From positions 19,085 to 83,084 of the forward strand of contig CACZHT010000005.1 in NCBI GenBank assembly GCA_902781045.1: a stretch of DNA of 64,000 nt, read 5' to 3'. The notes beneath the pieces were generated by a model. That model ran no database searches. It saw nothing but the letters and a program-made list of their open reading frames with translations, and was not told where the DNA came from. Origin of the DNA: an uncultured Bacteroidales bacterium (lineage in GTDB: Bacteria > Bacteroidota > Bacteroidia > Bacteroidales > Muribaculaceae). Below are positions 1,942 to 35,234 of the stretch, in pieces. Made by a program: the position numbers and the translations under genes. Within the stretch, counting starts at the first letter, position 1. Every line of letters begins with the position of its first letter.

Positions 1942-3483
1942 CTATTTGCCCAGCATCTTGTTGATGAGAGTGTTGATGTCGGTGATGTCGACGTGCTTGT
2001 CACCCGTCACGTCCATGATTTTCTCGGCAGCTTCGGCAGGAATGGTGTCATGACCCTGATGCCCAGTAGGCACATCGTAGCCCAGCGTCACATTGATCAA
2101 GATGTTGATGTCGGCAATGTCCACCATACCATCATGGTTCACATCGTACTTAATGCCATAGTAGGTATTGTAATAGGCACCTTCATATAGCGTATTACCA
2201 TCGAGGTCTGCCAAACGGATGAGTCCTTGAGTGCCGGTCTCGCCGCTGGGAGCCAATGGGGTGATGAGGTTGCCTGTGTGATATCCGTCGATTCCCACAC
2301 CTTCAATCCACTTGCCGTCCACCATGCCGATGCCGGTGATGGACGCATAGCGGTTCATTTGGTCACCAACGCGCACATACTTTACGGTCGTGTCGCTGAG
2401 CGAGAAGTAGTCGCAATTATAGAACTCGTTGAGGTTATTCATATAGGTAACCATCCAGTTGAAGTTGTACACATCTCTTTCTCCAAAGCTCTCATATCCT
2501 CGACTATTTATAGTTGGCAAAGAATACGTCCAACCAAATTCTTCTAAGAAATTCTCCTTGTCGTGTGTAGCAATAGGCGTAGTTGATACTGAAACGATTC
2601 TACTCTCTTCATCCAAATAGGCTACAGTTTTAACTTTGGTGGTATCTAAATGCTCTTCAAAATAACGATAACACTTGTATTTGGGCAACTTATAGCCTGA
2701 AATATCTGTGAGTGTCGTGTCGCCCACAATTTGGAAACGCTCGACGCTCATGGTATTATCTTCGTTAACATAGAGATATTCCCACACGACTCCCTCACGG
2801 ACTATTGGAGAATAAATGTTCTCTTCACGGTCGAAAGCGGCTCCCTGATATAGAATGTTGCCATCAAGGTCTTCCAGATGATGGAAACCGTATGTATCAT
2901 AATATGTACAGGTACATATACCAACGAAAGGATGAAACGCATCACCAAAATCTTCGGTGTCAAACCCGATTCCAGGGATGAAGTTTTCTTTCAATGATGA
3001 ATTGGCCATCACTGCAGCCATCTTTGGGCTCATGCGGCTAGGAGTTTCATCCCAATCCCAGGGATCAAAAGGGTTGTCAAAATCGAAAAGTGTGAATTCG
3101 CCAGTGGTGTTTAACTCATTCCAGATAGTTTCATTTTCTGAATATGACCACCAGGCTGTTTCAAAGTTCTCATTAAGGCCATTAAATGGCACCTCATAGA
3201 CTTTGTGACCCTCGTTGCGCATAGCACAGTAGGCTGTGTCTTTGCTCAAGTCGAGTGCTTTACCAGTGTATTTATAACACTTTTTATAAGTCTTACCATT
3301 GATGATTGTATCACCACGGAACTCAAAGTTGTAGAAGTAGCATGAATAGTCACCGTGGAATGCTTCATGGACATTAACCCAGCGCACCCCCTCGCGCACT
3401 AGTGGCTGGTAGTCGGCCTCTTGTGCCTGCGCTGCGATGCTGCTCAGCAGCACCGCCAGCATGATTGTGTAGAATTTCTTCAT
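1942..3483 (-). CDS. Secreted protein with two related ~200-aa domains and a C-terminal dockerin-like duplex
   Basis: Start chosen at MKKFYTIMLAVLLSSIAAQAQ (signal peptide), downstream of a promoter. Internal repeat YQPLVREGVRW / YSPIVREGVVW ... DLDGNILYQG / DLDGNTLYEG. Tail DVNHDGMVDIADINILIN ... DVTGDKHVDITDINTLINKMLGK. Confidence 0.75.
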   Translation of the reverse strand: MKKFYTIMLAVLLSSIAAQAQEADYQPLVREGVRWVNVHEAFHGDYSCYFYNFEFRGDTIINGKTYKKCYKYTGKALDLSKDTAYCAMRNEGHKVYEVPFNGLNENFETAWWSYSENETIWNELNTTGEFTLFDFDNPFDPWDWDETPSRMSPKMAAVMANSSLKENFIPGIGFDTEDFGDAFHPFVGICTCTYYDTYGFHHLEDLDGNILYQGAAFDREENIYSPIVREGVVWEYLYVNEDNTMSVERFQIVGDTTLTDISGYKLPKYKCYRYFEEHLDTTKVKTVAYLDEESRIVSVSTTPIATHDKENFLEEFGWTYSLPTINSRGYESFGERDVYNFNWMVTYMNNLNEFYNCDYFSLSDTTVKYVRVGDQMNRYASITGIGMVDGKWIEGVGIDGYHTGNLITPLAPSGETGTQGLIRLADLDGNTLYEGAYYNTYYGIKYDVNHDGMVDIADINILINVTLGYDVPTGHQGHDTIPAEAAEKIMDVTGDKHVDITDINTLINKMLGK

Positions 3484-3555
3484 AGTGGTAATATTTTTTA
3501 AGTTCATAATTTTCAAAAAGCTGTTGAGGGCGTTCACCCATGACTTACGGTAGTG

Positions 3556-3587
3556 CAAAAGTACTATGTCCTGTCGAGCCTTGCAAA
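3556..3587 (-). promoter_or_regulatory. Bacteroidetes sigma-A promoter for the dockerin protein gene
   Basis: Minus strand TTTG-N20-TACTTTTG. Confidence 0.65.
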
Positions 3588-3662
3588 TTTTTGAGCGAAA
3601 CACGTTTTTGTCTCAGTGACTTGATTATGGGAGGTTTAACTCCGATTGCAGCCGAAACACAC

Positions 3663-5336
3663 CTAGATGAACGGGCGATTTTTAACAATTTCGGCAAGGT
3701 AGTCGGTCAGCGGCACGTCCAAATCCAGTCGTTTGGCCAGCCTTGCACGCAACGAGCGCACGACACCGTCGCTCTTTAGTCCCAGGCAGACCGCGATGCT
3801 GGACGAACGCATGCCAAGGGCTGTGAGGATAATCATCCCGCGCTCTTTTTCATTCAGGTCAGAGTGCTCATCAAAGAACTGCGACATGACACTGTCGTTG
3901 TTGTCATCTATGTATTTCTGCAATTCGGCGAGCAACTCGCCGCGCTGCGTGAACGATTCGACTTCCTTCATGAACTGTCTGTAGAACACTTTTTCGGGAT
4001 AGTCATTGCTCATAGCAATCAGCCTGTCGCACAGTCCGCTATACACCGTCAGCAGCTCGGCAAGGCGCTGGTTGAGGTGTGCATCAGATGTGCGACTGTT
4101 CTCGAATGCTACTTTCTGCAGTGCTTGCTCCTGTTTCAAATGCTCAATCTGTGTTTTCAGCCCCTTGAATTGTCGGCGGTTGCGCAGATAGATTTGCAGC
4201 CACAGCACAACAATGGCCAGCAGTGTCAAGCCAGTGACAACGAGCATGTTGTGCTGTTGTGACTGGGCTTCGGCATGCGCTGCTTGTCGTTGACGGGTGT
4301 CAAACTCGCGGTCGATGGCCAGCAGGCGTGCAATGATGGGGTTGCCGCGCAGCGAGTCGTGCAGCTGCTCGCGCTGCTCATTATAGGCAATATAGTCCAA
4401 GATGTCGTGACGGTTGCGGGCCATAGCCTTCAGGCAGAACAGACGCATCGACTCGCGCTGTTGGTTGGCATCGGGCTGTGGTGCCATGTCCAGGTAGTGT
4501 TGAGCCGAGTCGTTGCGGCCCATCAGTGCGTAGGCACACGCTGCGTCTAGCATCGCATCGACAGTATATCGGGCGGAAGGATAGTGCTGCACGCAGTAGA
4601 CGGCCAGGTCCTTGGCTGTCTCGTGGATTGAGTCCTTCAAGTAACCGCGGGCCAGGTACTCCAGGCTGCGGGCACAGTTGGCACTGTCGCCGCATTGACG
4701 TGCCAGGCGATAGGCATGCTCCAGATTGGGGCGTGCCTTCTGGATGCCGTCGTTGCGCATCAAGGCTCCAGTGGCCAGCAGTGAGTAGATGATTTGCAAC
4801 GTGTCGCCAACTTTAATATAATAGGTGAGTGCTTTCTCGTAGTGCTGCAGGTCTTCCTGGTTCATGACGTTCATGTTCGACAACAGCTGACCGATGCGAT
4901 AGTTGATTTGCGCTAGGTTGCGATAGTCGGTCGTGTCGGCAGTGGCCTCGGCCTGCTTGTACAATTGCATTGCCAGCTCAGGCTGCTCGTGAATCTCGCT
5001 ATGCAGTCCCATGTAAATCATTGCTCGCACATGGCGTTCGCGCTCCTCGGGATGCCGCGAGTAGTGGTCTAGGGCCGCTTGAGCCAGTGAGTCGGTAGCA
5101 AGTTCAAACCGACCGCTGCGATAGGCCGTCTGTGTCCATAGCAGGGCATAGTAGGCACGAGCATCATCGGTCAGGCTGGTGGTATCGACCGCTTGCAGCA
5201 GTGCCAGCGAGCTGTCGGGTTGCGTGTATATCAGCGCATCGGCTTGCTCGAGTTGCCCGGACCGATGTTCATGGCACGACACTAGGGCAAGTGTCGCAAT
5301 TGACAGTCCGAGCAGTAAGGCGAATAATTTGTTCAT
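3663..5336 (-). CDS. Membrane-spanning one-component regulator: TPR-like sensor, TM helix, coiled coil, LuxR-like HTH
   Basis: N-terminal hydrophobic segment ending LALVSC. Helical TPR-like repeats, TM segment MLVVTGLTLLAIVVLWLQIYL, and C-terminal LNEKERGMIILTALGMRSSSIAVCLGL..VRSLRARLAKRL. Confidence 0.72.
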   Translation of the reverse strand: MNKLFALLLGLSIATLALVSCHEHRSGQLEQADALIYTQPDSSLALLQAVDTTSLTDDARAYYALLWTQTAYRSGRFELATDSLAQAALDHYSRHPEERERHVRAMIYMGLHSEIHEQPELAMQLYKQAEATADTTDYRNLAQINYRIGQLLSNMNVMNQEDLQHYEKALTYYIKVGDTLQIIYSLLATGALMRNDGIQKARPNLEHAYRLARQCGDSANCARSLEYLARGYLKDSIHETAKDLAVYCVQHYPSARYTVDAMLDAACAYALMGRNDSAQHYLDMAPQPDANQQRESMRLFCLKAMARNRHDILDYIAYNEQREQLHDSLRGNPIIARLLAIDREFDTRQRQAAHAEAQSQQHNMLVVTGLTLLAIVVLWLQIYLRNRRQFKGLKTQIEHLKQEQALQKVAFENSRTSDAHLNQRLAELLTVYSGLCDRLIAMSNDYPEKVFYRQFMKEVESFTQRGELLAELQKYIDDNNDSVMSQFFDEHSDLNEKERGMIILTALGMRSSSIAVCLGLKSDGVVRSLRARLAKRLDLDVPLTDYLAEIVKNRPFI

Positions 5337-5364
5337 AGTCACAGGGCTTTTTCAAATCGTAGTG

Positions 5365-5396
5365 CAAAGGTAGTTCAAGCCCACAAACTACGCAAA
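5365..5396 (-). promoter_or_regulatory. Bacteroidetes sigma-A promoter for the regulator
   Basis: Minus strand TTTG-N20-TACCTTTG. Confidence 0.65.
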
Positions 5397-5409
5397 TTTT
5401 TCAGCGTAA

Positions 5410-5460
5410 CAATTTTTGAGGGCAAAAGGCTGATTGTCAGCTTTTTGCCCTCAAAAATTG
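5410..5460 (-). terminator. Long 24-bp hairpin after the amylase gene
   Basis: caatttttgagggcaaaaggctga-ttg-tcagctttttgccctcaaaaattg, one non-Watson-Crick pair. Confidence 0.7.
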
Positions 5461-5493
5461 CCGAAACAAGGCTCAATTTGGACTCAAAAATGC

Positions 5494-8400
5494 CTATTTG
5501 CCCAGCATGATGTTGATGACCGTGTTGACATCTGCAATGTCTACTTGCCCATCTGCGCTTACATCACATGCAGCTCTAGACTCGTCGGTCACATTTCTTC
5601 CGAGCATCACATTGATGATGGCATTGACATCGGCAATGTCCACCTGACCGTCACCGGTCACATCACCAGTCAGTGCGGCATAGTCGGACGTGATGTCGCG
5701 AACTGTATACTTGTTGGAAGTAGAAGATATCTCAAAGTAAGTGTCGCGGTTCAGTTCTGTGATGTCAATGGTCTGATGACCACCATCTCCCTGGCTGAAG
5801 ATGATGTTGAACGTGTAGTCCTCGTCCGGGATGTCGAACGACTGGTTGAAGAACCGTGTGCCTCGCACCATAGTTGTGTTGTCGGCTGTCATCAGTTGGC
5901 CTGGCCAGCTACCCAGCAGGCTGCCGCTCTGGTCCCAAGCATAGAAGTAGACTTGGCTCCAGTTGTCGGGTGCGCTGGTGGGATCCTTTAGATAAATGGT
6001 GGCGCGCCGAGGCTCAAATCCGTGGAAGATGTATTCGCGAACAAGCACGTTGCGCACCTTGCCATCTTGCAGCACCCCAGCGGTGAGTGTGGTGTTGTCC
6101 GTCAGGGTCAGTGTCACCATGCCTGTGGCCGTCTTGCTGTCTGGTGTGGGACGTGTGCCGTCGGTCGTGTAGACGATGGTGGCAGTCGACTCCGAGGCGG
6201 TGATGGTGACGGTCACTGGTTCGGTGTAGCGTCCGCTCTCTTTGTCAATGGTCAGGGTGGGGGCGGGTGTGGTGTAGCGTGTCACCTCATGATTCCAAAC
6301 TCCGTCGACATAGTAGCCATGGTTGCGATAGGTAAGGTCGCTGGTTTGAGTGCCGTCGACCACAAAGATGATGCCGGTGGGCATTGTGGTCAAGTCGCCA
6401 TCATAGGTCCACTTGTAGACCTTGCGTGTGCTGTCGGGTGTGCAACCCATCAGCTCCATCGCAGCGCCAGGCCAGCTGCCACCAGTGTAGTTGCTGCTGC
6501 TGTTCCACACCCAAGTGGTGATGCGGCCCGAACTCATGGGAGCCTCGTAGAACACGCTCAACTCATCCTCGTCGACCACAGGTTCATAGACCTGCAGGTC
6601 GGTGACAGGTTGGGGCGTGAAGCCGCCAGTGATGTATTGCGTGTTGGGGTCGCAGTCCTCCTCATGTCCGTCGTATGCAAGTTGGGCGGGGATATTACGG
6701 TTGCTGTCGTAGAGATAAGGACCGTCTTCGCCCACTTTGCCCGGACCGTCCAGTACATAGACACGCAGGTTGCCTTTGCCGCTGAACGATGGTGTGGACA
6801 GAGTGCCATCGGTCACCACTTGCACATCGCCGGTGATGCAATCGCGGTATGTGCCATTCAGCACATGGGTGAATGTCGCGTTGCTGTTCAGTGCCACCAG
6901 GGCGTATGAGTCGATGTCGCCATTGGTGTAGCGGCGCTTGAAGGCATAGCCGCCATTGGATTGGCAACCCTGCTTGCTGTATTGACCCTTGCGCAGTGCC
7001 GGCACCGCAGCCCGAATTTTGTTGAGGCGCTGCAGGTGATGCGCCAGCGGACGGCTCAATGTGGCTGCCACGTTGCCAGTGGCGCGGCTCACTTCGCCGA
7101 AGTCGCTCACCTCAATCTCGCCAGTCAGATAACCGCCATAGTAGGCGCGTCCGGTGTTGGTCAGTGCCAAGTCTGTGCCCTTGTCCATCACCACACCCTT
7201 GCGGAACTCAATCTCGCCGCCATAGTACAGACATGGGATGCCGCGCATGGTGAACATCAGCGACAAGTTCTCGGCCCACTGGTCGGTGCCGCCGTTGAAC
7301 CGCTCGAAGCTGTCGGGACCATAGTCGTGGCTCTCGACATACATCACATTGTAGGTAGCATCATTATATAGGTTATCTTTGTCTAGAACTCCCCACAGGC
7401 GGCCGGCGTTCTGGAAGTTCCAGTGAGCAGTGAAGTCAATCACGCCCATGCCGCTGGCACGGCTGTAGTCGGGAGTGTGGTAGTCATTGCCGTCAAGCAG
7501 TGCATTGTTGCTGCGTGGCTGTCCGCTCTCGCTGGCATTAGCCTCATGTTCCTGAAGGCACAGGCTCTGGTTATGCAGTGTGGCGGGGTCGGTGCTCTCG
7601 TAGATGGCGGTGTTCTGCCAGTAGGCCGGGTCGTCATCCCACTGCGCGAGCAGCGATGCGTCGCTCTGCCAGGTGTAGAAGTAGGGTGACAGTGACGGCT
7701 GCCCACGGTAGGTCACATCGCTGAATCGGGCGCACACCTCGGCAAACATATAGAAGGGGCACTGGTTCAGACGCTTGTGCTTGTACTGCTCGCCCAGGGC
7801 TTGGAATGCCGGGATGAACACCTTATTAAATGTAAGGCGCGAGATATGTCCGCCCGTGTCGATGCGGAATCCATCCACACCCATCTCGATGAACTTCCCG
7901 TAGCAGTCTATGAGGTACTGGTACGTCTCGGGGTTCTCGGTGTTCAGGTCCACACAGTCGCCTGCTATTTGTGCCCACCATCGGTTGGGCTCATCCCAGT
8001 TGAAGTTGCCATAGTGGTGCCATAGGTTGTGGCTGTCATGGTTCTGGCCATCAGTGTTCTTCATCTTGGTCAGCCGGTCGGCATATTGCTGGGCACCGGG
8101 CAAGTTCATATAGTTGTCTTGCAGTTTGCCGCCTTGGCTCTGTGTCCAGGGCACCATGCACTGGCTCAGGTCGCTCTGTGGCTTGCTGTAGTCGCGATTG
8201 AAGAGTTTGCACAGGTGTTCCTCGCCGAAGTTGCCCGTGTGGTTGATGACGATGTCAAGCACAATCTTCATGCCTCGCGCATGGGCGGCGTCTATCAGGT
8301 CTTGCAGCTTGCAGTCATCGCTCTCATATCGTGCATCCACTCGGCTCATATCCATCGCATGATAGCCGTGGTAGTCAAAGCCTGATGCGTTCTGTACCAC

Positions 8401-8694
8401 TGGTGTAATCCACACTGCAGTGAATCCCAGTGCCTTGATATAGTCCAGACGCTCAATCAGTCCCTTGAAGTCGCCGCGCCACTCGGGGTCGTGCACAGCA
8501 GCGTCTTTCGAGCCGTCCCAGCAGTAGGTGTTATTACCTGGGTCGCCGTCATAGAAGCGCGTGGTGATGGCAAAGTAGATAGTTTCGTCTCGGAAGTCAT
8601 TTCGGCCTCCACTAAATGTCGTGCCTGCAATGTTCTGCGCCACGCAGAGCATGAGAGACACGATGCTCAAGATATACATCTTTGTTCTTCTCAT
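5494..8694 (-). CDS. Secreted multimodular GH13 alpha-amylase-family enzyme with two starch-binding (CBM26-like) modules, an Fn3-associated/chitobiase-C-like module and a C-terminal dockerin-like duplex
   Basis: Signal peptide. ETIYF..TRFYDGD, GDFKGL..RLDYIKALGFTAVWITPV, YHGYH, DIVINH, GFRIDT, FAEV and ESHD motifs. Two W..WPG modules, IVYTTDGTRPT, and tail GDVTGDGQVDIADVNAIIN...DVSADGQVDIADVNTVINIMLGK. Confidence 0.9.
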   Translation of the reverse strand: MRRTKMYILSIVSLMLCVAQNIAGTTFSGGRNDFRDETIYFAITTRFYDGDPGNNTYCWDGSKDAAVHDPEWRGDFKGLIERLDYIKALGFTAVWITPVVQNASGFDYHGYHAMDMSRVDARYESDDCKLQDLIDAAHARGMKIVLDIVINHTGNFGEEHLCKLFNRDYSKPQSDLSQCMVPWTQSQGGKLQDNYMNLPGAQQYADRLTKMKNTDGQNHDSHNLWHHYGNFNWDEPNRWWAQIAGDCVDLNTENPETYQYLIDCYGKFIEMGVDGFRIDTGGHISRLTFNKVFIPAFQALGEQYKHKRLNQCPFYMFAEVCARFSDVTYRGQPSLSPYFYTWQSDASLLAQWDDDPAYWQNTAIYESTDPATLHNQSLCLQEHEANASESGQPRSNNALLDGNDYHTPDYSRASGMGVIDFTAHWNFQNAGRLWGVLDKDNLYNDATYNVMYVESHDYGPDSFERFNGGTDQWAENLSLMFTMRGIPCLYYGGEIEFRKGVVMDKGTDLALTNTGRAYYGGYLTGEIEVSDFGEVSRATGNVAATLSRPLAHHLQRLNKIRAAVPALRKGQYSKQGCQSNGGYAFKRRYTNGDIDSYALVALNSNATFTHVLNGTYRDCITGDVQVVTDGTLSTPSFSGKGNLRVYVLDGPGKVGEDGPYLYDSNRNIPAQLAYDGHEEDCDPNTQYITGGFTPQPVTDLQVYEPVVDEDELSVFYEAPMSSGRITTWVWNSSSNYTGGSWPGAAMELMGCTPDSTRKVYKWTYDGDLTTMPTGIIFVVDGTQTSDLTYRNHGYYVDGVWNHEVTRYTTPAPTLTIDKESGRYTEPVTVTITASESTATIVYTTDGTRPTPDSKTATGMVTLTLTDNTTLTAGVLQDGKVRNVLVREYIFHGFEPRRATIYLKDPTSAPDNWSQVYFYAWDQSGSLLGSWPGQLMTADNTTMVRGTRFFNQSFDIPDEDYTFNIIFSQGDGGHQTIDITELNRDTYFEISSTSNKYTVRDITSDYAALTGDVTGDGQVDIADVNAIINVMLGRNVTDESRAACDVSADGQVDIADVNTVINIMLGK

Positions 8695-8723
8695 ATCTTA
8701 TTTTTTTTGTGGGTTTTTGGCTG

Positions 8724-8754
8724 CAAATTTACTGAAATCTTTCTGTTTTGCAAA
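8724..8754 (-). promoter_or_regulatory. Promoter of the amylase gene
   Basis: Minus strand TTTG-N19-TAAATTTG, left intact by the adjacent IS. Confidence 0.65.
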
Positions 8755-8782
8755 CAATTCTTGCGAATTTATAAGTCAATAA

Positions 8783-10376
8783 CCTAAATTCCGCAGCACT
8801 TTAGTTTAACTTTATTTACAAGTTCTTGAGCAACAAAAAGTTGCCCAGGATTTTGCCATGTCAGATTTTTCACTTACTTTAGTGCTGCATTCAATGACAA
8901 GCAAAAATCATCAATGACATGGCAAAGATAAGCATAAAATCTGAGAAAATCACTCCTTTTGGAGGAATTTTTCACATGAGAGAGCTTTTTTCGCGTTTCG
9001 CAGGTCCGGTTATCGACAAAGTACTGGGTTTGCGGTGCACGTCATACGGCTATCAGTACAGTGAGATTGTAGCTTCATTGTCAAGCGTTTACTTCTGTGG
9101 CGGCGACTGTGTGGAGGACGTGACAAGCCACCTGATGCCACATCTCTCGCTTCATCCAACCCTGCGCACATGCAGCTCTGACACCATTCTCAGGGGAATC
9201 TCTGAGCTGAGCTGCGCCAACACGACCTATACCTCTGACACGGGAAAGAGCTATGACTTCAATCCAGCCTCGAAACTGAACACCCTGCTTGTCAAGACAC
9301 TGCTGCACACAGGCCAGCTTGTGGCCGGTGAATCATACGACTTGGACTTCGACCACCAGTTCATTGAGACGGAGAAGTATGACGCAAAGATGACCTACAA
9401 GAAGTTCAGAGGCTACAGCCCCGGCATTGCCGTCATTGGCGACCTCATCGTCGGCATAGAGAACCGCGACGGTAACACCAACGTGCGCTTCCACCAGGCC
9501 GACACGCTGGAGCGCATCTTCTCGAACCTTGAGCAGAACGACATCCGCATCAAGCGCGCACGGATGGACTGCGGCTCATGCTCACGCGAGATAGTGGAAA
9601 CCGTCGAGAAGCACTCCGAGCACTTCTACATCCGTGCCAACCGCTGCAGCTCACTTTATGACAGTCTGCTGACACTGCGCGGATGGCAGCGCGAAGAAAT
9701 CAACGGCATTGAGTATGAACTGAATTCCATCATCGTCGAGAAGTGGGAGGGCAAGGCTTACCGCCTCGTCGTACAGCGGGAGCGCCGCAACAGCGGCGAG
9801 CTGGACTTGTGGGAGGGAGAATACTCGTACCGCTGCATTCTGACCAACGACCACACCTCAACCAATCGTGAGATTGTGGAGTTCTATAATCTCAGGGGCG
9901 GCAAGGAGCGCATCTTCGACGATATGAACAACGGATTCGGATGGGCCAGGCTGCCAAAGTCCTTCATGGCTGAGAACACCGTGTTCCTGCTGCTGACGGC
10001 TCTCATACGAAACTTCTACAGGTTCCTCATGGGCAGGCTTGACTCAAAAGCCTTCGGACTGAAGAACACGAGCCGGATCAAAGCCTTCGTGTTCAAGTTC
10101 ATCAGCGTGCCAGCCAAGTGGATAAGGACGGCTAGGCACTATGAGCTGAACATCTACACGGACAATCAGGCATATCTAACACCTTTTGAAATCACTGACG
10201 GATGAGTATTCGACTTCGAGGATTAAGAACAGCATAAAACCCCTGTACTGCTTGACGGGGTAAGGGGAAACTGTGTGCGAATCACACGTAATCGTTGCTG
10301 TAGGGGCGGGAGATTACTCTGAAGGAGGGCCAGACGGCAAAATTAGTCCGAATGACTATTAGTTGCGGATTTTAGG
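8783..10376 (+). mobile_element. IS1380-family insertion sequence, complete
   Basis: Terminal inverted repeats cctaaattccgcagc (8783-8797) and gttgcggattttagg (10362-10376), 13/15 matching. Flanked by AATAA direct repeats at 8778-8782 and 10377-10381. Single transposase ORF. Confidence 0.9.
8919..10205 (+). CDS. IS1380-family DDE transposase
   Basis: ITPFGG, YDLDFD, RARMDCG, FYIRA, YNLRGGKERIFDDMNNGFGW and F..N.VFLLL motifs typical of Bacteroides IS1380 transposases. Confidence 0.92.
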   Translation: MAKISIKSEKITPFGGIFHMRELFSRFAGPVIDKVLGLRCTSYGYQYSEIVASLSSVYFCGGDCVEDVTSHLMPHLSLHPTLRTCSSDTILRGISELSCANTTYTSDTGKSYDFNPASKLNTLLVKTLLHTGQLVAGESYDLDFDHQFIETEKYDAKMTYKKFRGYSPGIAVIGDLIVGIENRDGNTNVRFHQADTLERIFSNLEQNDIRIKRARMDCGSCSREIVETVEKHSEHFYIRANRCSSLYDSLLTLRGWQREEINGIEYELNSIIVEKWEGKAYRLVVQRERRNSGELDLWEGEYSYRCILTNDHTSTNREIVEFYNLRGGKERIFDDMNNGFGWARLPKSFMAENTVFLLLTALIRNFYRFLMGRLDSKAFGLKNTSRIKAFVFKFISVPAKWIRTARHYELNIYTDNQAYLTPFEITDG

Positions 10377-10577
10377 AATAACTGAAGCTTGTAAGTGAAA
10401 AGCCGAAAAGCTTCCCCACATTTTCTAAGGTCATTGACGGCTTCGCCCTAAGCTATAAGCTCCACGTTGTGGTTTGTGGAGTAGGATGGCGTTTGTGGCG
10501 ATTTGGAACATTGCGCTGTCACATTTTTACCATTTTCAGGACACAGGTGAAAATGCAGTCAAAAATTCATTATAATA

Positions 10578-10609
10578 TTTGTGCAGTTCGAATGTTTTAT
10601 CTAATTTTG
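10578..10609 (+). promoter_or_regulatory. Promoter of the capsule operon, with a ~150-nt leader before upxY
   Basis: TTTG-N20-TAATTTTG. An 8-bp inverted repeat cattttca-N9-tgaaaatg (10531-10555) lies just upstream. Confidence 0.65.
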
Positions 10610-10772
10610 CAGCAATTTTCAATCTCTTTCAAGGGAGATTTTGAAAGAAATGTCTTTTTATGTCACTGATATTCAGTACAATAAGACTCTATTCTATACG
10701 TTTTTATGCGAGTCTCCATGCACTCTTGTGTGGTGACCCCAAGGTTTTGTTTCCACTTGTCACCCTGCCCTG

Positions 10773-11348
10773 ATGCTCAAGCGTTCTGATGTGCATTGGT
10801 TTCCCATGCGTGTTAGCTACTCCAGTGCGCCACGCCTGGCACGACTCAAGGATTTGCTTGAGCAGGACGAAGCGGTGCAGGCAACCTATGTCGCCATGCA
10901 GTACAAGAAGGTGCGTGGTGTCATGAAGTTCACCCCGGCTGTCGAAAACCTGATTTTCGTCCGTTCAAGCCTTGACCGGCTGAGTGTGATAAAACGCACA
11001 GGACCCTTTGTCGTGCTGCGTTACATCATGCACCCGGTCATTGAGAACGATGGCTGGAAGCACACCGAGCCGCTGATGGTGCCCGACACCCACATGGACG
11101 ACTTTATCCGGGTCACGGCCGAGGCCAACGACAAGGTCATCTATCTTGACAACCTTGATTTTGCCTGCAGGCCGGGACTGCGGGTGCAAATCACTGATGG
11201 TACCTTTGCCGGTGTGACGGGGGTCATCAAGCGCATCCAAGGCAATGTTTGTGTGGTCATACCCATCCAGCACACCATTGCGGCGGCAATCACCGGCATC
11301 CCACGCAAGCACTTGCGCTATCTCCCCGACAACGAACCAGATAATTAA
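10773..11348 (+). CDS. upxY: UpxY-family (NusG-like) transcription antiterminator
   Basis: W(F)PMRVSY, P.VENLIFVRSS, VPD.HMDDF and KOW motif RVQITDGTFAGVTG. First gene of a polysaccharide locus. Confidence 0.88.
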   Translation: MLKRSDVHWFPMRVSYSSAPRLARLKDLLEQDEAVQATYVAMQYKKVRGVMKFTPAVENLIFVRSSLDRLSVIKRTGPFVVLRYIMHPVIENDGWKHTEPLMVPDTHMDDFIRVTAEANDKVIYLDNLDFACRPGLRVQITDGTFAGVTGVIKRIQGNVCVVIPIQHTIAAAITGIPRKHLRYLPDNEPDN

Positions 11349-11370
11349 TCAAACAATCTCAACGAATATT

Positions 11371-20521: not shown

Positions 20522-20530
20522 GGTTTTTTT

Positions 20531-25378: not shown

Positions 25379-25391
25379 TTGGAATGAAACG

Positions 25392-26420: not shown

Positions 26421-26474
26421 ACTGTGTTACGGGACACATTTGGGCTGCATCATCCAAGGCTTACGCCGTGTATG

Positions 26475-26591
26475 TCATTCTTTCTCGCTAAGAATGGCGA
26501 TGAGCTTTCTCGTCAGCCTCTCGTTTGCGTCTTTGAGGTATTCCATTTCCTTAGCTGTTACTATATCTGCCGGATTATTCGTGGCCTGCAA
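26475..26591 (-). pseudogene. Short antisense coiled-coil-like ORF or gene remnant
   Basis: TTG-start 38-aa frame LQATNNPADIVTAKEMEYLKDANERLTRKLIAILSEKE*. Protein-like composition only. Confidence 0.2.
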
Positions 26592-26665
26592 ACTTTTTGA
26601 AATTTAGCTATATTACTTAAAGAATATGAGCTAATTATTTAAATGACTCATAAAGGTATTGTAAA

Positions 26666-27871: not shown

Positions 27872-27881
27872 AAAGGCAATA

Positions 27882-29348: not shown

Positions 29349-29384
29349 GCCCCTAATTATCGTTTTGCCATTTGATGGAATTAT

Positions 29385-30182: not shown

Positions 30183-31323
30183 TATTCGTTTGTTTTTCTC
30201 TGGGGATTTTTGCTCGAAACCATCAACTTCAAAAATCTCTGTTTCGGACGAATTGAAAGAGCTGATTCAATCCTGTGATTGGAAGGTTGTGAATTTCGAG
30301 GTGCCTTTGAAGCCTAAAAATTCTTCTAATTCTCAAGGACGATTTTTTCAAAACGACGATGCCCCTTCTTTTCTGCTTAATCTAGGTTTCAACCTATTCT
30401 CGTTCGCCAACAATCATGCTTTTGATTATGGTATAGAAGGATGGAAGAAAACGGTAGATAGTCTCTCAGGAAAAATTTTTGGTTCGGGCAGATATGATGA
30501 CGCTTATCAAGTTAAAATTGTAGAAAAGAATGGTCTGAAGATTGGATTTCTTGCCTTGACCTACGCTGCCCGATCCGGGGTTTTTGATATTTTCACAGAT
30601 AAGGATTCTTATGCTTGTGCATGGATAAATGACCTGAAAGTCAATCACATTATCATTGATGCAAAGAAAAAAGTTGATTATCTTGTAATTCTTCCGCATG
30701 ACGGCATTGAGTATATCGATGTTCCTATGCCAGAAACAATTTCTCGTTACCGAGATTTTATTGAATACGGTGCTGATGCTGTGATAGGAACTCATCCGCA
30801 TTGCCCACAGGGATGGGAAGTGTATAAGGGGAAACCAATCTTTTACAGCCTTGGCAATTTTTTGTTCAACAGCAAGGATAATTATGATTATAGGGCATGG
30901 AATCGTCCTCATTGGTATGAAGGTTTGTGCGTTATTGTTAGCTTTGGTGTCGATGGCATAACTTATCAAGTTATTAATACAAGGAATGAGGGAAATGTTG
31001 GCATATCTGTTGAGCATTCTACCGATAGGGATGAACACAACAGACGGTTGTGCAGCTACCTTACGGACAAAGAGGCATATTCAAGGGTATTGAATAAGGA
31101 ATGTAGCCGTTTGATGAAAAATCAGGAGATGCCAATTATTAATCAGTCTTTTCATAGTGTCTCGTTAAAATCATCGGTTATATTGCTGTTTAAGACGTTA
31201 GTGAGGGTAGTCTTGAAGCGAAATAATGATACCGCGCTTGTCAATCTTGTCAAGAATGATTCCAGAAGAAGTTTGTTGATTCGTGGTCTTCAAGAGACAA
31301 ATGATGCTCAAGGTAAAAAATAG
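30175..31323 (+). CDS. CapA/PGA_cap-family metallophosphatase-like protein
   Basis: SGDF, VNFE, ANNHAFDYG, PHDGIEY, GTHPH, YSLGNF. Confidence 0.85.
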   Translation: MSNIRLFFSGDFCSKPSTSKISVSDELKELIQSCDWKVVNFEVPLKPKNSSNSQGRFFQNDDAPSFLLNLGFNLFSFANNHAFDYGIEGWKKTVDSLSGKIFGSGRYDDAYQVKIVEKNGLKIGFLALTYAARSGVFDIFTDKDSYACAWINDLKVNHIIIDAKKKVDYLVILPHDGIEYIDVPMPETISRYRDFIEYGADAVIGTHPHCPQGWEVYKGKPIFYSLGNFLFNSKDNYDYRAWNRPHWYEGLCVIVSFGVDGITYQVINTRNEGNVGISVEHSTDRDEHNRRLCSYLTDKEAYSRVLNKECSRLMKNQEMPIINQSFHSVSLKSSVILLFKTLVRVVLKRNNDTALVNLVKNDSRRSLLIRGLQETNDAQGKK

Positions 31324-31344
31324 TAGTATTTAAAAAACGATTTA

Positions 31345-32439
31345 ATGAATATTGCAAAAAAAATCCGCAATTTGATGTTTATATGCCATAAAGAAATAGC
31401 ATATAGATATCATGAGAGAAAGGTCGGAAGAAATCTGAAAAAGCTTGTCGATCGCAAGAGATTGACCAGAGACCAAATAAATGAGATTCAAGAGTTCTAT
31501 AAGGGAATCATAGGCAAAAAGATATCTCTGAAATCGCATGAGTATTTTTACTCGCGAACGGGTATCTACTCTAAAGAGTATGTCCCTATCAGCCTCTACC
31601 ATGTTGAGTTGCAACCCAAGGCTAACATGGTGCCCTATCGCAATGCTTATGCCGATAAAAACATGGTGGACATTCTGTTGCCCAATGTAAAACATCCACG
31701 AACCATTGTGAAGCGTATGAATGGGTATTACTACTATGATGGGCAACCGATATCAGAGGATGACGTGATAGAGAAATGCAGCAATCTGAAGAACGCAATC
31801 ATTAAACCTGTTCTGGAATACAGCGGAAAGGGAGTTGAAGGCCTTGAGGTTACAAATGGCATCACAAATATTGATGGACTTAATCTGAAAGAGCTATTCA
31901 ACAAATATGGCAAGAACTTCCAGATACAAGAACGATTGCGTCAGCATGAGAAAATGAATGCACTCAATCCGACCTCAGTCAATACAATCAGAATATTGAC
32001 TTATCGTTCTGGAATGGAAATTCTGCTGATTTATTCGGTTGTGCGCATTGGCAGAAAAGGGCAGGTTATTGACAACCAGTGCGCGGGCGGAATTAGTACA
32101 ATCGTCTCCGAAGATGGAAAGCTGGGGAAATATGCCTTTGGTGGATATGCCGAAGATGGAATTGAGGTTACCGACTCAGGAGTTGTGCTAGATGGTTTTG
32201 AAATACCATCGTACGACAAAGCTGTTGAAACAGTTAAGAGACTTCACTATCAGTTGCCCTTCTTCAACTTGATAGGCTGGGATGTGGCTATCGATGAGGC
32301 CGGAGATCCAGTCATTATTGAGTGGAATGCCAATCCTGGCTTGAGCCAATCAGCATTTGGACCTGGGTTTGGTAAATATACAGAGAGGGTGTTGCGAGAA
32401 TTGTGGCCCAGAGAGAATACTGCGCGATTGCGCTATTGA
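31345..32439 (+). CDS. Sugar-transfer-associated ATP-grasp ligase 2
   Basis: YADKN, IIKP...SGKGV, IQERL, SVNTIRILT, RIG..IDNQCAGG, IGWDVAI, IEWN. Confidence 0.82.
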   Translation: MNIAKKIRNLMFICHKEIAYRYHERKVGRNLKKLVDRKRLTRDQINEIQEFYKGIIGKKISLKSHEYFYSRTGIYSKEYVPISLYHVELQPKANMVPYRNAYADKNMVDILLPNVKHPRTIVKRMNGYYYYDGQPISEDDVIEKCSNLKNAIIKPVLEYSGKGVEGLEVTNGITNIDGLNLKELFNKYGKNFQIQERLRQHEKMNALNPTSVNTIRILTYRSGMEILLIYSVVRIGRKGQVIDNQCAGGISTIVSEDGKLGKYAFGGYAEDGIEVTDSGVVLDGFEIPSYDKAVETVKRLHYQLPFFNLIGWDVAIDEAGDPVIIEWNANPGLSQSAFGPGFGKYTERVLRELWPRENTARLRY

Positions 32440-32652
32440 CTGAATTGCAGTAGCTGATTTGGATAGTGGCTTGCGTTTCCTCTATGGCACTATGTGGGTT
32501 TTCACAGATTGTCTGAGTTGGATTGTGCATGCGCACATTGCATCAGCCCATCGATTGATTTCTGTTTTTTATAACTGATATATTGGCAGTGCTAGGCGTC
32601 TTTCATCCTTTTGAAATCCTGGTGCTATAAAAGAACACAGATAATAATTTTA

Positions 32653-33630
32653 ATGAAAAACTTTGCACTCATTGGTGCTGCGGGATATATCGCACCGCGG
32701 CACATCAAGGCCATCGCCGACACAGGAAACAACCTGATGGTGGCATACGACCGCTTTGACAGTGTGGGACGACTGGACAGCTCGTTCCCCGAAGCCTCGT
32801 TCTTCACCGAGCAGGAGCAGTTTGACCGGTTCTGCTCGCGACAGATGCTAACCGACAACCCGTTGCACTGGCTCAGCATTTGCACTCCCAACTACACGCA
32901 TGACGCATTCATACGCTATGGACTGCGGCTGGGCACGGATGTCATCTGCGAGAAACCGCTTGTACTGAACCCTTATAACATCGATAATCTCTTGGAGGTG
33001 GAGCGAGCCACCGGTCACAAGGCTTACACCATCTTGCAGTTGCGTCTGCACGACTCGATTGTGGCTCTAAAGGAGAAAATCGACAACGGCCCCAAGGACA
33101 AAATCTACGATGTCGACCTGACTTATATCACCAGCCGAGGCAAATGGTACTATGCTTCATGGAAGGGCGACATACACAAGAGTGGCGGTGTGGCGACCAA
33201 CATCGGCGTGCACTTCTATGACATGCTTCAGTGGGTGTTCGGTCCTGTGAAGCAGAATATAGTGCATGTGATGAGCTTTGACCGCGTGGCGGGATACTTG
33301 GAGCTGGAAAAGGCGCATGTGCGTTATTTCCTGAGCATCAACGCCGAGTGTCTGCCACCCAATGCTGTGCAGGGCGAGAAGCGGACCTACCGCACGCTTA
33401 ACATCGATGGCGACGAATTTGAGTTCAGTGTGGGATTCACCGAGCTGCATACTAAGAGTTACCAGAAGATTCTGGCCGGAGAGGGATTCCGCATCAGTGA
33501 GGCAAGGCCGTGCATTGAGATTGTGAGCGACATCCGTCACGCCACACCCATCGGACTCAAGGGCGACTACCACCCGTTGGCACGGCTCCCGCTCTCTACT
33601 CACCCCTTCGGCTGGGACGAGAAGCGTTGA
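32653..33630 (+). CDS. wbpB: UDP-GlcNAcA 3-dehydrogenase (WbpB-like, Gfo/Idh/MocA family)
   Basis: NFALIGAAGYIAPRH, ICTPNYTH, VICEKPL, SWKGD..KSGGVATNIGVHFYDML, GFTELHT.SY. Confidence 0.9.
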   Translation: MKNFALIGAAGYIAPRHIKAIADTGNNLMVAYDRFDSVGRLDSSFPEASFFTEQEQFDRFCSRQMLTDNPLHWLSICTPNYTHDAFIRYGLRLGTDVICEKPLVLNPYNIDNLLEVERATGHKAYTILQLRLHDSIVALKEKIDNGPKDKIYDVDLTYITSRGKWYYASWKGDIHKSGGVATNIGVHFYDMLQWVFGPVKQNIVHVMSFDRVAGYLELEKAHVRYFLSINAECLPPNAVQGEKRTYRTLNIDGDEFEFSVGFTELHTKSYQKILAGEGFRISEARPCIEIVSDIRHATPIGLKGDYHPLARLPLSTHPFGWDEKR

Positions 33631-33929
33631 CAGACATGTCACTATGCGGCTGAAAGCGGTGGAGTGTGACAAGGTGTCTTGCACTATTTTTACGATTAAG
33701 CTGAAGGAATACTTTATTAGACCTATCAAATCTTTGGCTGCCACATGATTGGAAGCAATCTGATAATATTGGTCTAGTATGAGTTGATTATATCGAGTTG
33801 ACCATATTGATTTGATTCTCTTATAATCTTCAATTCTTTTCCTTGTGTGCGTTTAGAGATGTAATAACAGTCGCAACAGTACACAACTTTGAACATGAGA
33901 AGACAGAACATTTTTAAATATTTAACACC

Positions 33930-35234
33930 ATGCTCAAGAAATTACTTTTAACAACGTGTTGTGTGATGGCTCTGACTGCCGAGGCAACCGTAGGCCATAA
34001 TGCGGATTATGCTAAGAGCAATCTACAGCAACCTGAACAAATTGCCACATTCCAGAGGACACCCAACTCATGGCTTTGGTACAGAAACTTTGTCATCACC
34101 ACTGTTTATGGCGTGTCAGACACGGCAATGACCCACTCGGTCTACAATGATTGTCTCATCACCCCGCAGGACTTGCAAAACTCGGCTACGGATGCACTGC
34201 CCATCAATGCTAAGATTATTGGTTACCAACTCGACGGCTACTATGACAGTCAGTACTCTAATGTGCTGATGATTTATTGCTGGATGAAGCACACCGACCA
34301 GACAAGCATTGAACACACCACAGTAAGTGACGGGTGGAAGAAAAATGGCTACTTGGACGGACTGACAAGTGACTGGCAGTACTGCAACGGACAGACGTTT
34401 ACACTACCCAGCGGCGCGACAGAACAGAGCCCAAAGCCTTTGTATGATGTGACGTTTGATAACGGTAAGGTGTTCCAGTATGAGGGACGAAACATCCTGA
34501 TGTCCATCAGAAATCGGGCAGAGACTCGGAAGCTGATAGATTTTCACTATGTCTGTGCGCCCGCAGTGAATGAGATTGCGGCGTTCTATCGCACAGGCAA
34601 CTATGGTTATGGCGGGCCGGCGACTGGCGGCACAACAGTCGAGGTCGATGGCATGGTCTCGGCTGAGTCTTATCAGCTGCCTGCATTCAGGTGGAAATAT
34701 TACACCAACGACATCACTGTGGTTGTGAATCTCCTGGATCGCAGCGGGAACCCCATCGCACAGGATGACATCACCGATGGCCAGCCTGACGGTCGTCCAT
34801 TGCTCTACATCTATGACGAGACTGCCAAGCGGATTGTTGAGGTGCAGGGCGTGACGCGTGATGCCGATGGCTTCTTTGCTGTGACACCGGGCACTGCAAT
34901 CGAGGTGAAGAATGTTGACTACACCCACCAGTATCGCATCGTAGCCAAGAGTGCCACATGCGGGCAAGACGAGGTGCTGGCATCTTTCGGTTCTATCGAC
35001 AACGACATTGACCTGACCTTCACCTTGCAGCAGGATGGCGCACCGGCCAAGCCCGGCGACCTGACGGGTGATGGCAATGTGGACATTGCCGACATCAACG
35101 CCCTGATCAACGTCATGCTCGGACAGTGGACCGCTGCCGACTGCGTCAACGACCCCGACCTGACAGGCGACGGCAAGGTTGATATCGCCGATGTGAATGT
35201 CTGCATTAACCTCATGCTGGGTATTGGTGAATAA
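33930..35234 (+). CDS. Secreted protein of unknown function with C-terminal dockerin-like duplex
   Basis: Signal peptide MLKKLLLTTCCVMALTAEA. Tail GDLTGDGNVDIADINALIN...DLTGDGKVDIADVNVCINLMLG. Confidence 0.78.
   Translation: MLKKLLLTTCCVMALTAEATVGHNADYAKSNLQQPEQIATFQRTPNSWLWYRNFVITTVYGVSDTAMTHSVYNDCLITPQDLQNSATDALPINAKIIGYQLDGYYDSQYSNVLMIYCWMKHTDQTSIEHTTVSDGWKKNGYLDGLTSDWQYCNGQTFTLPSGATEQSPKPLYDVTFDNGKVFQYEGRNILMSIRNRAETRKLIDFHYVCAPAVNEIAAFYRTGNYGYGGPATGGTTVEVDGMVSAESYQLPAFRWKYYTNDITVVVNLLDRSGNPIAQDDITDGQPDGRPLLYIYDETAKRIVEVQGVTRDADGFFAVTPGTAIEVKNVDYTHQYRIVAKSATCGQDEVLASFGSIDNDIDLTFTLQQDGAPAKPGDLTGDGNVDIADINALINVMLGQWTAADCVNDPDLTGDGKVDIADVNVCINLMLGIGE

Follow-up and report, generated by a model that had tools for sequence, protein, structure and literature searches.

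The window, as the whole stretch of 64 kb analysed here is called, derives from a Gram-negative rumen member of the Muribaculaceae (Bacteroidales), rather than from a Prevotella, and encodes three secreted proteins, P1 to P3, each of which has an N-terminal signal peptide and ends in a dockerin. P1 (1942-3483, minus strand) has no function assigned from its translation, and its passenger is duplicated internally. Translation probably begins with Met 3483 (MKKFYTIMLAVLLSSIAAQAQ...), giving a protein of 513 aa that matches a 513-aa homologue in L007, where the tandem paralogues measure 487, 513 and 714 aa; the signal peptide reads MKKFYTIMLAVLLSSIAAQA-QE. Apart from the dockerin, P1 gave no Pfam family and no PDB sequence match. 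P2 (5494-8694, minus strand, 1066 aa) comprises, according to Pfam, a GH13 α-amylase (Alpha-amylase, E-value 3.7e-42), a CHB_HEX_C/Fn3_assoc region (CHB_HEX_C_1, 7e-10), two stretches of CBM26 (1.2e-13) and a C-terminal dockerin (Dockerin_1, 2.7e-09), and its signal peptide is apparently cut before TTFSGG, as in the L007 and L082 orthologues. P3 (33930-35234, plus strand, 434 aa), likewise of unassigned function from its translation, recurs as the exact protein, its neighbours conserved, on 22 contigs of rumen metagenomes, and its passenger matched nothing in Pfam or the PDB. The passengers are unrelated, as the preliminary description had stated, in that a GH13 α-amylase with CBM26 stands against two proteins lacking Pfam or PDB matches. 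Rumen metatranscriptome contigs cover positions 1998-3168 at P1 and 5474-8588 at P2, so that the genes are represented in rumen metatranscriptome assemblies.

The preliminary description had also reported a dockerin-like tail of two repeats on each of the three ORFs, and the Pfam scan bears this out, as Dockerin_1 (PF00404, gathering score 22.9) matches the C-terminal extremity of all three above the gathering score. The match spans 1951-2148 (minus strand) in P1, with 32.2 bits at aa 486-551 of the ORF 1942-3603, 5506-5667 (minus strand) in P2, with 37.5 bits at aa 1010-1063, and 35052-35213 (plus strand) in P3, with 28.1 bits at aa 375-428. Scanned in six frames for the Ca-loop motif, the 64 kb showed exactly six repeats, against a chance expectation of 0.03 (200 shuffles), all within these tails: 2107-2145 and 1975-2013 in P1, separated by a linker of 21 residues, 5626-5664 and 5527-5565 in P2 (both minus strand), and 35058-35096 and 35157-35195 in P3 (plus strand). 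The residues first noted at the putative specificity positions were read again in all six, with I-N at positions 17/18 in 6/6 and, at positions 10/11, I-A in 5/6 and I-T in the second repeat of P1. The tail profile matches the solved type I dockerins 5NRM/5NRK, 2CCL, 1OHZ and 4FL4. Judged by sequence, the tails are genuine type-I-like dockerin modules of one specificity type, and the same I-A/T and I-N in both repeats could, by analogy, allow dual binding in a symmetric mode.

These nearest solved relatives belong to clostridial and ruminococcal cellulosomes (C. thermocellum Xyn10B-CipA, A. cellulolyticus Cel5-ScaB), where two-repeat, EF-hand-like dockerins likewise end secreted enzymes and have an internal symmetry compatible with dual binding. 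Unlike in those systems, the host is diderm, and the recognition positions, S-T and K-R in cellulosomes, are hydrophobic or Asn (I-A, I-N). The layout of P2, with GH13, CBM26 and dockerin, is typical of the amylases of the Ruminococcus bromii amylosome, which shares the habitat of a starch-degrading gut community; here, in contrast, the amylase is one among many unrelated dockerin proteins. Dockerin-bearing CAZymes in rumen MAG surveys are mostly GH13 (PMC9763041).

None of P1, P2 and P3 matched the T9SS CTD model TIGR04183 at E<=0.01, in agreement with the earlier observation that they lack this domain. That the window holds no cohesin also stands, since Pfam found none on the scanned ORFs, a family-specific cohesin HMM none among all six-frame ORFs of at least 60 aa, and hhalign none in the sole CTD-bearing neighbour. 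This neighbour (36278-37435, plus strand) is a secreted protein of 385 aa, the last ~70 aa of which are T9SS-CTD-like by phmmer and HMM (..FNGVNVVVTRYADGTTNVSKVVR); it resembles the C-terminus of L030 3078-4490 (phmmer E 6.8e-12) and scores 9.3e-25 with the HMM of its CTD subtype, which TIGR04183 does not recognise. As a candidate cohesin it was ruled out by a probability of 0.2% in hhalign against the cohesin profile. Its CTD-like end suggests that the window's organism uses the T9SS.

Among the 185,579 species genomes scanned with the tails, relatives turned up in Muribaculaceae MAGs only, and the window DNA is 82-95% identical to UBA2720, Tb.RUG.166 and UBA4262. Counted over the examined loci of these congeneric MAGs, dockerin ORFs number at least 47, 25 and 23, respectively, and on these data the dockerin type is lineage-specific and greatly expanded in rumen Muribaculaceae. 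The signature is conserved over 280 repeats, and in an unbiased set of 59 neighbouring dockerin ORFs, picked independently of the search pattern, A/S/T occupies position 11 in 90%, I/V/L position 17 in 97% and N/D position 18 in 95%, so that the specificity positions do not vary at random. The passengers in the congeners are mostly C10 proteases, amylases, FGE-sulfatase-like and LRR proteins, as opposed to the cellulases of cellulosomes.

All dockerin-rich MAGs of the genus have genes for LRR-dockerin-X-CTD proteins, and full-length orthologues of these carriers accompany the dockerins in 5/5 examined same-genus genomes (UBA4262, UBA2720, Tb.RUG.166, RGIG4861 and RGIG7587). As the genomes with detected carriers do not include that of the window's species, its carriers are extrapolated from those congeners. 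The carriers, ~680 aa long and mostly present as two tandem paralogues, consist of a BspA-type LRR domain, a dockerin that likewise reads IA/IN, the module X and a CTD, the last recognised by TIGR04183 (E 2.6e-4 on L030 4524-6542) and by family CTD HMMs. X, the ~145 aa between dockerin and CTD, was modelled by AF2 with pLDDT 95.5 and pTM 0.88, and a Foldseek search of the PDB with this model returned cohesins as the first 21 and most of the top matches, led by 2XDH (E 2.5e-9, TM 0.77/0.81) and followed by 2JH2, 4DH2, 5N5P and 5NRM. On the predicted structure, X is a cohesin. Pfam Cohesin matches 7/50 family members (best 7.7e-12), and P0162 has a precomputed PF00963 match; P0123, the modelled cohesin, falls below the Pfam Cohesin model, and no significant match to a cohesin emerged from a sequence search of the PDB.

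Structurally, the Muribaculaceae cohesin is matched best by A. fulgidus 2XDH and the C. perfringens GH84C/GH33 cohesins 2JH2, 2W1N and 2VO8. These come from cohesin-dockerin pairs that also assemble proteins unrelated to cellulose degradation, although in one archaeon and one Gram-positive bacterium, where there is neither a connection with the T9SS nor a large expansion of dockerins. Cellulosomes share the cohesin fold of the partner module, seen here by Foldseek on the AF2 model, as well as the many dockerin proteins and few cohesin carriers per genome, whereas the carriers described here combine one cohesin with an LRR adhesin domain and a dockerin of their own. The three proteins had been proposed to bind one common receptor; a surface-anchored cohesin is a plausible one, given the cohesin-fold modules with T9SS-type CTDs in five congeneric genomes. 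On balance, the dockerin proteins are probably displayed through such cohesin-CTD carriers on the organism's own surface.

Dockerins lacking cohesins are common in genomes outside the cellulosome producers (Peer et al. 2009, as relayed in PMC6487960 and PMC9763041), and the absence of a cohesin from the window would fit a dockerin that is a Ca-binding stabiliser or linker, complete in itself and without a specific partner. Such a role is improbable, because the putative contact positions show strong conservation across over 150 proteins whose passengers are unrelated, cohesins are present in all the congeneric genomes examined, dockerin and CTD exclude one another as tags, and the varied placement of the dockerin (N-terminal, internal or C-terminal, beside unrelated domains) fits a portable binding module. 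Foreign cohesins are abundant in the rumen, and dockerins have been suggested to pass laterally between Firmicutes and Bacteroidetes (PMC6487960), so docking on scaffoldins of other rumen organisms, e.g., Ruminococcus, was considered as well; however, I-A/I-N is also found on the dockerin that shares a polypeptide chain with the lineage's own cohesin, and the proteins would first have to exit from a diderm cell, which leaves cross-species docking with hardly any probability.

Single-cohesin carriers face dozens of dockerin proteins in the genus, an observation that counts against display through these carriers. The dockerin-cohesin tandem of the carrier co-folds in AF2 with pTM 0.91 and an ordered linker, as in a fixed intramolecular arrangement, and if this arrangement is the canonical cis complex, the cohesin site may not be free for enzymes. 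The receptor might then be one of the small SP-cohesin-like-CTD proteins beside the carriers (241 aa and 451-471 aa), a multi-cohesin adaptor scaffoldin or a non-protein ligand. Two neighbours in L030/L026, 3078-4490 and 7354-8076(-), have a CTD, no dockerin and an N-terminus resembling the first cohesin strands, but their hhalign matches to the cohesin profile (93% over 48 columns and 88% over 40) span just one third of the domain. The cohesin subfamily comprises ~9,000 representatives, of which many are multi-cohesin proteins with CTD-like ends, and related Bacteroidales have proteins with 2-14 cohesins, such as P0307 (Coh-Big_2 repeats-Coh-Doc-Coh-Doc(IA/IN)); within the DNA examined, however, the window's genus yielded single-cohesin carriers only. 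A receptor other than the carrier cohesin is judged unlikely.

SPI-type signal peptides are present in 138/142 dockerin proteins, and, with no CTD and few real lipoboxes, these proteins have no known outer-membrane route. In the tag census, 168 ORFs carry a dockerin only and 45 combine dockerin, cohesin and CTD; a single ORF with dockerin and CTD, but no cohesin, was a false regex match. Dockerin-only proteins never have a CTD, and all CTD-bearing dockerin proteins also have a cohesin, a distribution that would suit a dockerin serving mainly as an export tag, which docks in the periplasm on a cohesin-CTD carrier so that the pair leaves through the T9SS. The passengers include Peptidase_C10 with an Inhibitor_I69 propeptide (14/84), which is CTD-bearing T9SS cargo in Porphyromonas and Prevotella, and the two starch-granule-binding CBM26 modules of P2 are ill-suited to the periplasm. 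Nevertheless, piggy-back transport through the T9SS has no known precedent, and lysis or vesicle release followed by capture by surface cohesins predicts the same gene content. Such joint export has a small but real chance of being correct; surface display would be its consequence, and it refines rather than excludes display through the carriers.

The kinds of passenger (C10 with I69, BspA-type LRR) recall the gingipains, C10 proteases and BspA-type LRR adhesins that Porphyromonas and Prevotella display as CTD cargo of the T9SS, and the T9SS is shared too, being complete in most S24-7/Muribaculaceae genomes (PMC4936053), with CTD-ended carriers here. In contrast to that cargo, most such passengers here bear a dockerin in place of the CTD, which in this lineage remains only on the cohesin carriers and on a small number of further proteins. 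A cellulosome-like complex has been inferred from MAGs of 'Ca. Stygibacter' (Cloacimonadota; Williams et al. 2021, PMC8542988), another FCB-group diderm, with signal-peptide enzymes (GH18, GH57, S8, C25) bearing C-terminal dockerins and a cohesin protein whose conserved T9SS CTD would attach it to the surface of the producing cell. The scaffoldin of that organism is a single 3,755-aa protein with multiple cohesins and with CBMs, in place of ~680-aa single-cohesin LRR-Doc-Coh-CTD carriers, whereas the present lineage belongs to the Bacteroidota, lives in another habitat and has a far larger dockerin repertoire. The idea of a cellulosome-like or novel display system in a Gram-negative host is therefore retained in part: the host is Gram-negative and cohesins are fused to T9SS-type CTDs in five congeners, but "novel" was an overstatement, as a T9SS-CTD scaffoldin with dockerin enzymes had already been inferred for Cloacimonadota (PMC8542988). 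Dockerins of rumen Bacteroidetes were reported in 2016 (PMC6487960).

In the preferred reading, display through the carriers, the passengers of P1-P3 would cross the inner membrane via their ordinary signal peptides, and the Ca-dependent dockerin would most likely plug into a cohesin module on CTD-ended proteins, mainly LRR-dockerin-cohesin-CTD, encoded outside the window. Export and surface attachment of CTD cargo by the T9SS are established in other Bacteroidota, and here the system would export the carriers and fix them on the cell surface. The amylase P2, together with P1 and P3, would then be displayed on the cell in a cellulosome- or amylosome-like manner, with a T9SS-dependent anchor replacing the SLH or sortase anchors of cellulosomes and the sortase- or cell-wall-bound scaffoldins of the Firmicute R. 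bromii.

Type I dockerins (Pfam PF00404) consist of two repeats of about 22 residues, each made of a 12-residue EF-hand-like calcium loop (D1, D/N3, D5, D9/12) followed by a helix. A two-repeat module lies at the C-terminal end of three ORFs of the window, P1 (1942-3603, minus strand), P2 (5494-8694, minus strand) and P3 (33930-35234, plus strand), and the stop codon follows about 0-3 residues past it. Pfam Dockerin_1 scores them at 32.2, 37.5 and 28.1 bits, respectively, all above the gathering score of 22.9. When the tail profile was compared with the PDB, the best matches were solved type I dockerins (5NRM/5NRK, 2CCL, 1OHZ and 4FL4), with 5NRM_B, 5NRK_B, 2CCL_B, 4FL4_A, 1OHZ_B and 6KG9_A at E values of 2e-4 to 7e-3. 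The six repeats share the consensus D-[VL]-[TNS]-x-D-[GK]-x-V-D-I-[AT]-D-[IV]-N-x-x-I-N-x-x-L-G, and a six-frame scan of the 64-kb window for the calcium-loop motif recovered exactly these six, all in the tails of P1-P3, against 0.03 in shuffled sequence. Counting the first loop Asp as 1, positions 10/11 are I-A, once I-T, and positions 17/18 are I-N in 6/6. The tails are genuine dockerins of one conserved specificity type, and the preliminary description was right both about the two-repeat tails and about I-A/T and I-N at these positions in all six repeats.

Each of the three proteins that carry these tails has an ordinary, cleavable signal peptide. P2 is a GH13 α-amylase with two CBM26 modules, and no identical protein was found on record. 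The most likely start of P1 is the Met codon at 3483, for a length of 513 aa; its passenger and that of P3 had no match among Pfam, NCBIfam or PDB sequences, in keeping with the earlier claim that the three passengers are unrelated. The passenger of P1 contains an internal duplication (PLVREGVRWVN.../PIVREGVVWEY... and LEDLDGNILYQGA/LADLDGNTLYEGA), and in the related MAG UBA4262 three tandem P1 paralogues adjoin the amylase orthologue (L007 6980-12502). Both P1 and P2, dockerin parts included, occur in cattle and sheep rumen metatranscriptome assemblies at 95-100% identity, where carry-over of DNA is possible because the data are assemblies.

Between P1 and the amylase, a gene (3663-5342, minus strand) encodes a protein of 559 aa that has TPR-like repeats at its N-terminus, a single transmembrane segment and a C-terminal segment. 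This protein weakly resembles the BT3442 family and DUF6377 and may be a membrane-bound regulator of the adjoining secreted-protein genes. Directly upstream of the amylase start is a DDE_Tnp_1 transposase ORF (8919-10205, within a region spanning 8779-10205). Metatranscriptome contig depth rises from about 5 to 140-400 at 8779-9000, and many contigs end at about 8780, which suggests that an IS element, multi-copy and expressed, ends here within the promoter region of the amylase; a terminal inverted repeat pair was not found within 8650-10700.

The exact P3 protein is present on 22 contigs from cattle rumen metagenomes. A search of one genome per species (185,579 species) with the aligned tails gave 103 confirmed matches, all of them ruminant Muribaculaceae MAGs, some under older names such as "Porphyromonadaceae bacterium UBA4262". 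An assignment of the organism to Prevotella was dropped, since every relative falls among Muribaculaceae MAGs. The window shares 82-95% DNA identity with UBA4262, UBA2720 and RGIG4861, which makes its organism another species of their genus, in a diderm lineage. The same tails searched against a database of 5.8 billion proteins returned only fragments of up to 128 aa; this search seems to favor proteins of about the length of the query.

The preliminary description had proposed to count such tails genome-wide. In the DNA fetched around the matches, that is, in loci of relatives, dozens were counted per congeneric MAG, with at least 47 dockerin ORFs in UBA2720, at least 25 in Tb.RUG.166 and at least 23 in UBA4262. 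Altogether, 156 distinct dockerin ORFs with 280 repeats were collected, among which the signature of P1-P3 (IA/IN, the residues at positions 10/11 and 17/18) accounts for 52%, followed by IA/ID (14%) and IS/IN (11%). Random variation at these positions would have counted against a common specificity. Yet 59 neighboring dockerin ORFs without the search pattern have A/S/T at position 11 in 90% of cases, I/V/L at position 17 in 97% and N/D at position 18 in 95%, so that this objection is removed.

The passengers of this dockerin type include several secreted enzymes, among them GH13 amylases, GH30, GH53, and C10 and S8 proteases. Over 84 of the ORFs, the passenger domains were Peptidase_C10 with Inhibitor_I69 (14 ORFs), BspA-type LRR and FGE-sulfatase (8 each), Omp28 (5), Alpha-amylase with CBM26 (4), NAGPA (3), GH30 and CotH (2 each), and GH53, GHL10 and Peptidase_S8 (1 each). 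SPI-type signal peptides were predicted for 138 of 142 dockerin proteins, and a credible lipobox for few. The dockerin is most commonly C-terminal, with the second repeat beginning 23 residues before the stop; others are internal (e.g., followed by an F5/8-type-C domain) or stand directly after the signal peptide, as in SP-Doc-FGE-sulfatase-like proteins. The latter form a recurrent family of about 320 aa (signal peptide, N-terminal dockerin, FGE-sulfatase or SUMF1-like domain), found in the relative loci L029, L035 (e.g., 9923-10873), L040, L042, L050, L052, L059 and L065. Since their dockerin is N-terminal, it is not a C-terminal sorting signal in those proteins.

T9SS type A cargo proteins end in a C-terminal sorting domain (CTD) of about 70-80 aa (TIGR04183/PF18962). 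This domain was not detected on P1, P2 or P3 at E≤0.01, as the first reading of the sequence had held. The fetched ORFs comprise 168 with a dockerin alone, 45 with a dockerin, a cohesin and a CTD, 6 with a dockerin and a cohesin, and 21 with a CTD alone. One ORF that seemed to combine dockerin and CTD without cohesin (L051 7793-10843) was rejected as a single false regex match. In this set the two tags are mutually exclusive; from the counts, dockerin and CTD therefore behave as alternative tags, joined only via the cohesin-bearing carriers.

The carriers came to light through dockerin proteins of related loci (L026, L030 and L039) that continue for about 225-250 residues C-terminal of the dockerin. 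Two 682-aa proteins of UBA4262 (L030) consist of a signal peptide, LRR_5, Dockerin_1, an unannotated module of about 145 aa and a CTD-like end, which in the protein at 4524-6542 scores 20.9 bits with TIGR04183 (cut-off 23; E 2.6e-4). The carriers end in domains that resemble T9SS-type CTDs, not in SLH modules or sortase signals. TIGR04183 at E≤1 does not recognize a second CTD subtype (..GVNVVVTRYADG..KVVK), which was linked by homology.

The subtype V.V.YYN..G......F.G.N.VVTRY.DG....KV.K, homologous to the carrier CTDs, also ends many other secreted proteins of the lineage. Examples are the window protein at 36278-37435 (plus strand) and those at L030 3078-4490 and 7354-8076(-), and T9SS cargo is probably under-annotated in Muribaculaceae. 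The protein at 36278-37435, two genes after P3, is the one CTD-type protein of the window; it was considered as a hidden cohesin and rejected (hhalign probability 0.2%). T9SS machinery genes were not found in the window. All 10 T9SS components are reported in 22 S24-7 genomes, and the system is reported to be complete in most genomes of the family (PMC4936053).

The window ORFs gave no cohesin match with Pfam or with the family HMM, which upholds the earlier remark that the window is without one. Cohesins (Pfam PF00963) are nine-stranded β-sandwiches (jelly-roll) of about 140-150 aa. At the level of sequence, the cohesin-like profiles matched no cohesin of the PDB significantly (E 0.5 for 1TYJ and 2Y3N, and none thereafter), so that comparison of folds was needed. 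The module of P0123, a database protein 98% identical to the UBA4262 protein, was modeled by AF2 from a 50-sequence alignment with a pLDDT of 95.5 and a pTM of 0.88. Foldseek matches of this model in the PDB were mostly cohesins, including all of the first 21; the top one was 2XDH (E 2.5e-9, TM 0.77/0.81), and others were 2JH2, 4DH2, 5N5P, 5NRM, 3UL4 and 2VN6. On the strength of the predicted structure and these matches, the module of about 145 aa between dockerin and CTD is a cohesin; thus the search by structure prediction and Foldseek that the preliminary description had suggested did find a cohesin module, on carriers encoded outside the window. Pfam Cohesin matches 7 of 50 diverse copies of the module (best E 7.7e-12), more than any other family, the module of P0123 itself being unmatched, and a precomputed Cohesin match exists for one full-length family member, P0162.

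All dockerin-rich MAGs of the genus (UBA4262, UBA2720, Tb.RUG.166, RGIG4861 and RGIG7587) have full-length carrier orthologues, and so do Tb.RUG.446, Sodaliphilus spp. and some 30 further rumen MAGs. The orthologues are usually two tandem paralogues; in the genus of the window each carrier seen has a single cohesin, and the dockerin of one paralogue is of the IA/IN type of P1-P3, the other being VT/VN-like. Searching the 5.8-billion-protein database with eight cohesin-like modules yielded one fragment; alignment of the full-length carrier worked instead and brought out a large family built like the carriers, with 5,493 matches among 8,000 candidates, the best 120 all having about 655-700 aa. 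Named full-length matches are entered as "leucine-rich repeat protein [Muribaculaceae bacterium]".

As a stand-in for a two-chain model, the natural dockerin-cohesin tandem of a carrier (206 aa, 64-sequence alignment), whose dockerin is of the IA/IN type, was folded as one chain. The model reached a pLDDT of 96.3 and a pTM of 0.91, with a linker pLDDT of 87; at this pTM, for modules of 60 and 145 aa, their relative position is predicted with confidence. The model fits a cognate pair; alternatively, the dockerin may clasp the cohesin in cis and block its site, or the contact may be non-canonical. Foldseek with the tandem model returned the cohesin only (TMq about 0.5), a result that bears on the cohesin fold and not on the interface. 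Candidate receptors without a dockerin adjoin the carriers in L030 and L026, namely, a 241-aa SP-domain-CTD protein and a 451-471-aa protein, whose N-terminal domains resemble the cohesin profile in its first strands (over 40-48 columns only; hhalign 88% and 93%).

The cohesin family extends well beyond the carriers. In an exhaustive search of 1.84 billion representatives, its profile matched 9,071 proteins at E≤1e-3, of which 1,222 reach E≤1e-30. Among the best matches, many combine 2-14 cohesin copies with signal peptides of the Bacteroidota style and ends that resemble CTDs, and some also contain dockerins; one multi-cohesin cluster has a taxon name, "hypothetical protein [Bacteroidaceae bacterium]". 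The 1,536-aa protein P0307 has, in order, a cohesin, about 11 Big_2 repeats, a cohesin, an atypical dockerin, a cohesin and a C-terminal IA/IN dockerin, by its domain order the design of an adaptor scaffoldin. In a related rumen Bacteroidales, L039 1-2761 encodes Big_2 repeats-Coh-Doc-Coh-CTD and then a small SP-Coh-Doc protein. These adaptor-like proteins hint at a hierarchical assembly.

The remainder of the window contains housekeeping genes, a capsule-type polysaccharide locus and the IS element. The capsule/O-antigen-type locus (11245-33630), with P3 at its downstream edge, includes Poly_export, Wzz/tyrosine kinase, UDP-glucose dehydrogenase, DegT aminotransferase, Wzy, flippase, ATP-grasp and PGA_cap genes. 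Its G+C content is 0.38-0.44 at 16-32 kb, against about 0.50-0.55 in other parts of the window, and this lower G+C suggests an exchangeable cassette. A small outer-membrane β-barrel protein (OMP_b-brl_2; 35280-35891, plus strand) lies between P3 and the CTD protein, an order kept in 6/6 rumen contigs examined. Two small adjacent secreted proteins are encoded at 40203-41531 (minus strand), one of the DKNYY family and the other with a CarbopepD_reg_2 domain that resembles the N-terminal plug-proximal domain of SusC.

In the usual view of Bacteroidota, polymers are broken down by PUL-encoded lipoproteins and T9SS cargo. A report of 2016 assigned rumen dockerins, one of them on a C10 protease, to Prevotella or Bacteroides (PMC6487960). 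In 2021 a CTD-bearing multi-cohesin scaffoldin was inferred for Cloacimonadota, together with dockerin enzymes (PMC8542988). A study of rumen Bacteroidetes described genomes of the phylum as being without cohesins and dockerins (PMC5831590). Literature joining Muribaculaceae, dockerins, cohesins and T9SS was not found, subscription journals lying outside the coverage. The module pair is that of the cellulosome, but host, anchor, carrier architecture and passenger set differ. P2 resembles the amylases of the amylosome; both of those systems are anchored by SLH modules or sortase, whereas the carriers here end in a domain that resembles a T9SS-type CTD.

The congeners possess cohesin-fold modules on CTD-bearing proteins and a large dockerin repertoire. 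The species of the window would likewise encode LRR-Doc-Coh-CTD carriers, which T9SS would place on the cell surface and to which P1-P3 would bind in a calcium-dependent and perhaps symmetric manner. A bolder proposal, to which we give only a slim chance, is that in rumen Muribaculaceae the dockerin has replaced the CTD as the tag that localizes most secreted enzymes, which leave the cell by hitchhiking on CTD carriers. Dockerin proteins exported by Sec and devoid of a CTD would dock in the periplasm onto carrier cohesins, pass the type IX translocon together with the carrier and then be fixed to the surface. In Porphyromonas, Prevotella and Tannerella, the cargo with CTDs includes C10 proteases and BspA-type LRR proteins, whose counterparts in Muribaculaceae bear dockerins; this difference fits such a replacement of tags. 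If hitchhiking is true, the cohesin-dockerin pair would be an adaptor for a secretion system.

In a common rumen family, proteases, amylases and adhesins that bear dockerins thus number in the dozens per genome, and the same family encodes cohesins fused to T9SS-type anchors. Unannotated relatives of the cohesin subfamily run into the thousands. Should the pair bind as predicted, protein engineering would gain a new orthogonal pair of cohesin and dockerin, of the I-A/I-N type, and cellulosome-style modular assembly would be in wide use on Gram-negative surfaces. T9SS biology would then face the question of how proteins without a CTD exit the periplasm, and Muribaculaceae could display enzymes that degrade starch and protein with neither lipidation nor a CTD on them.
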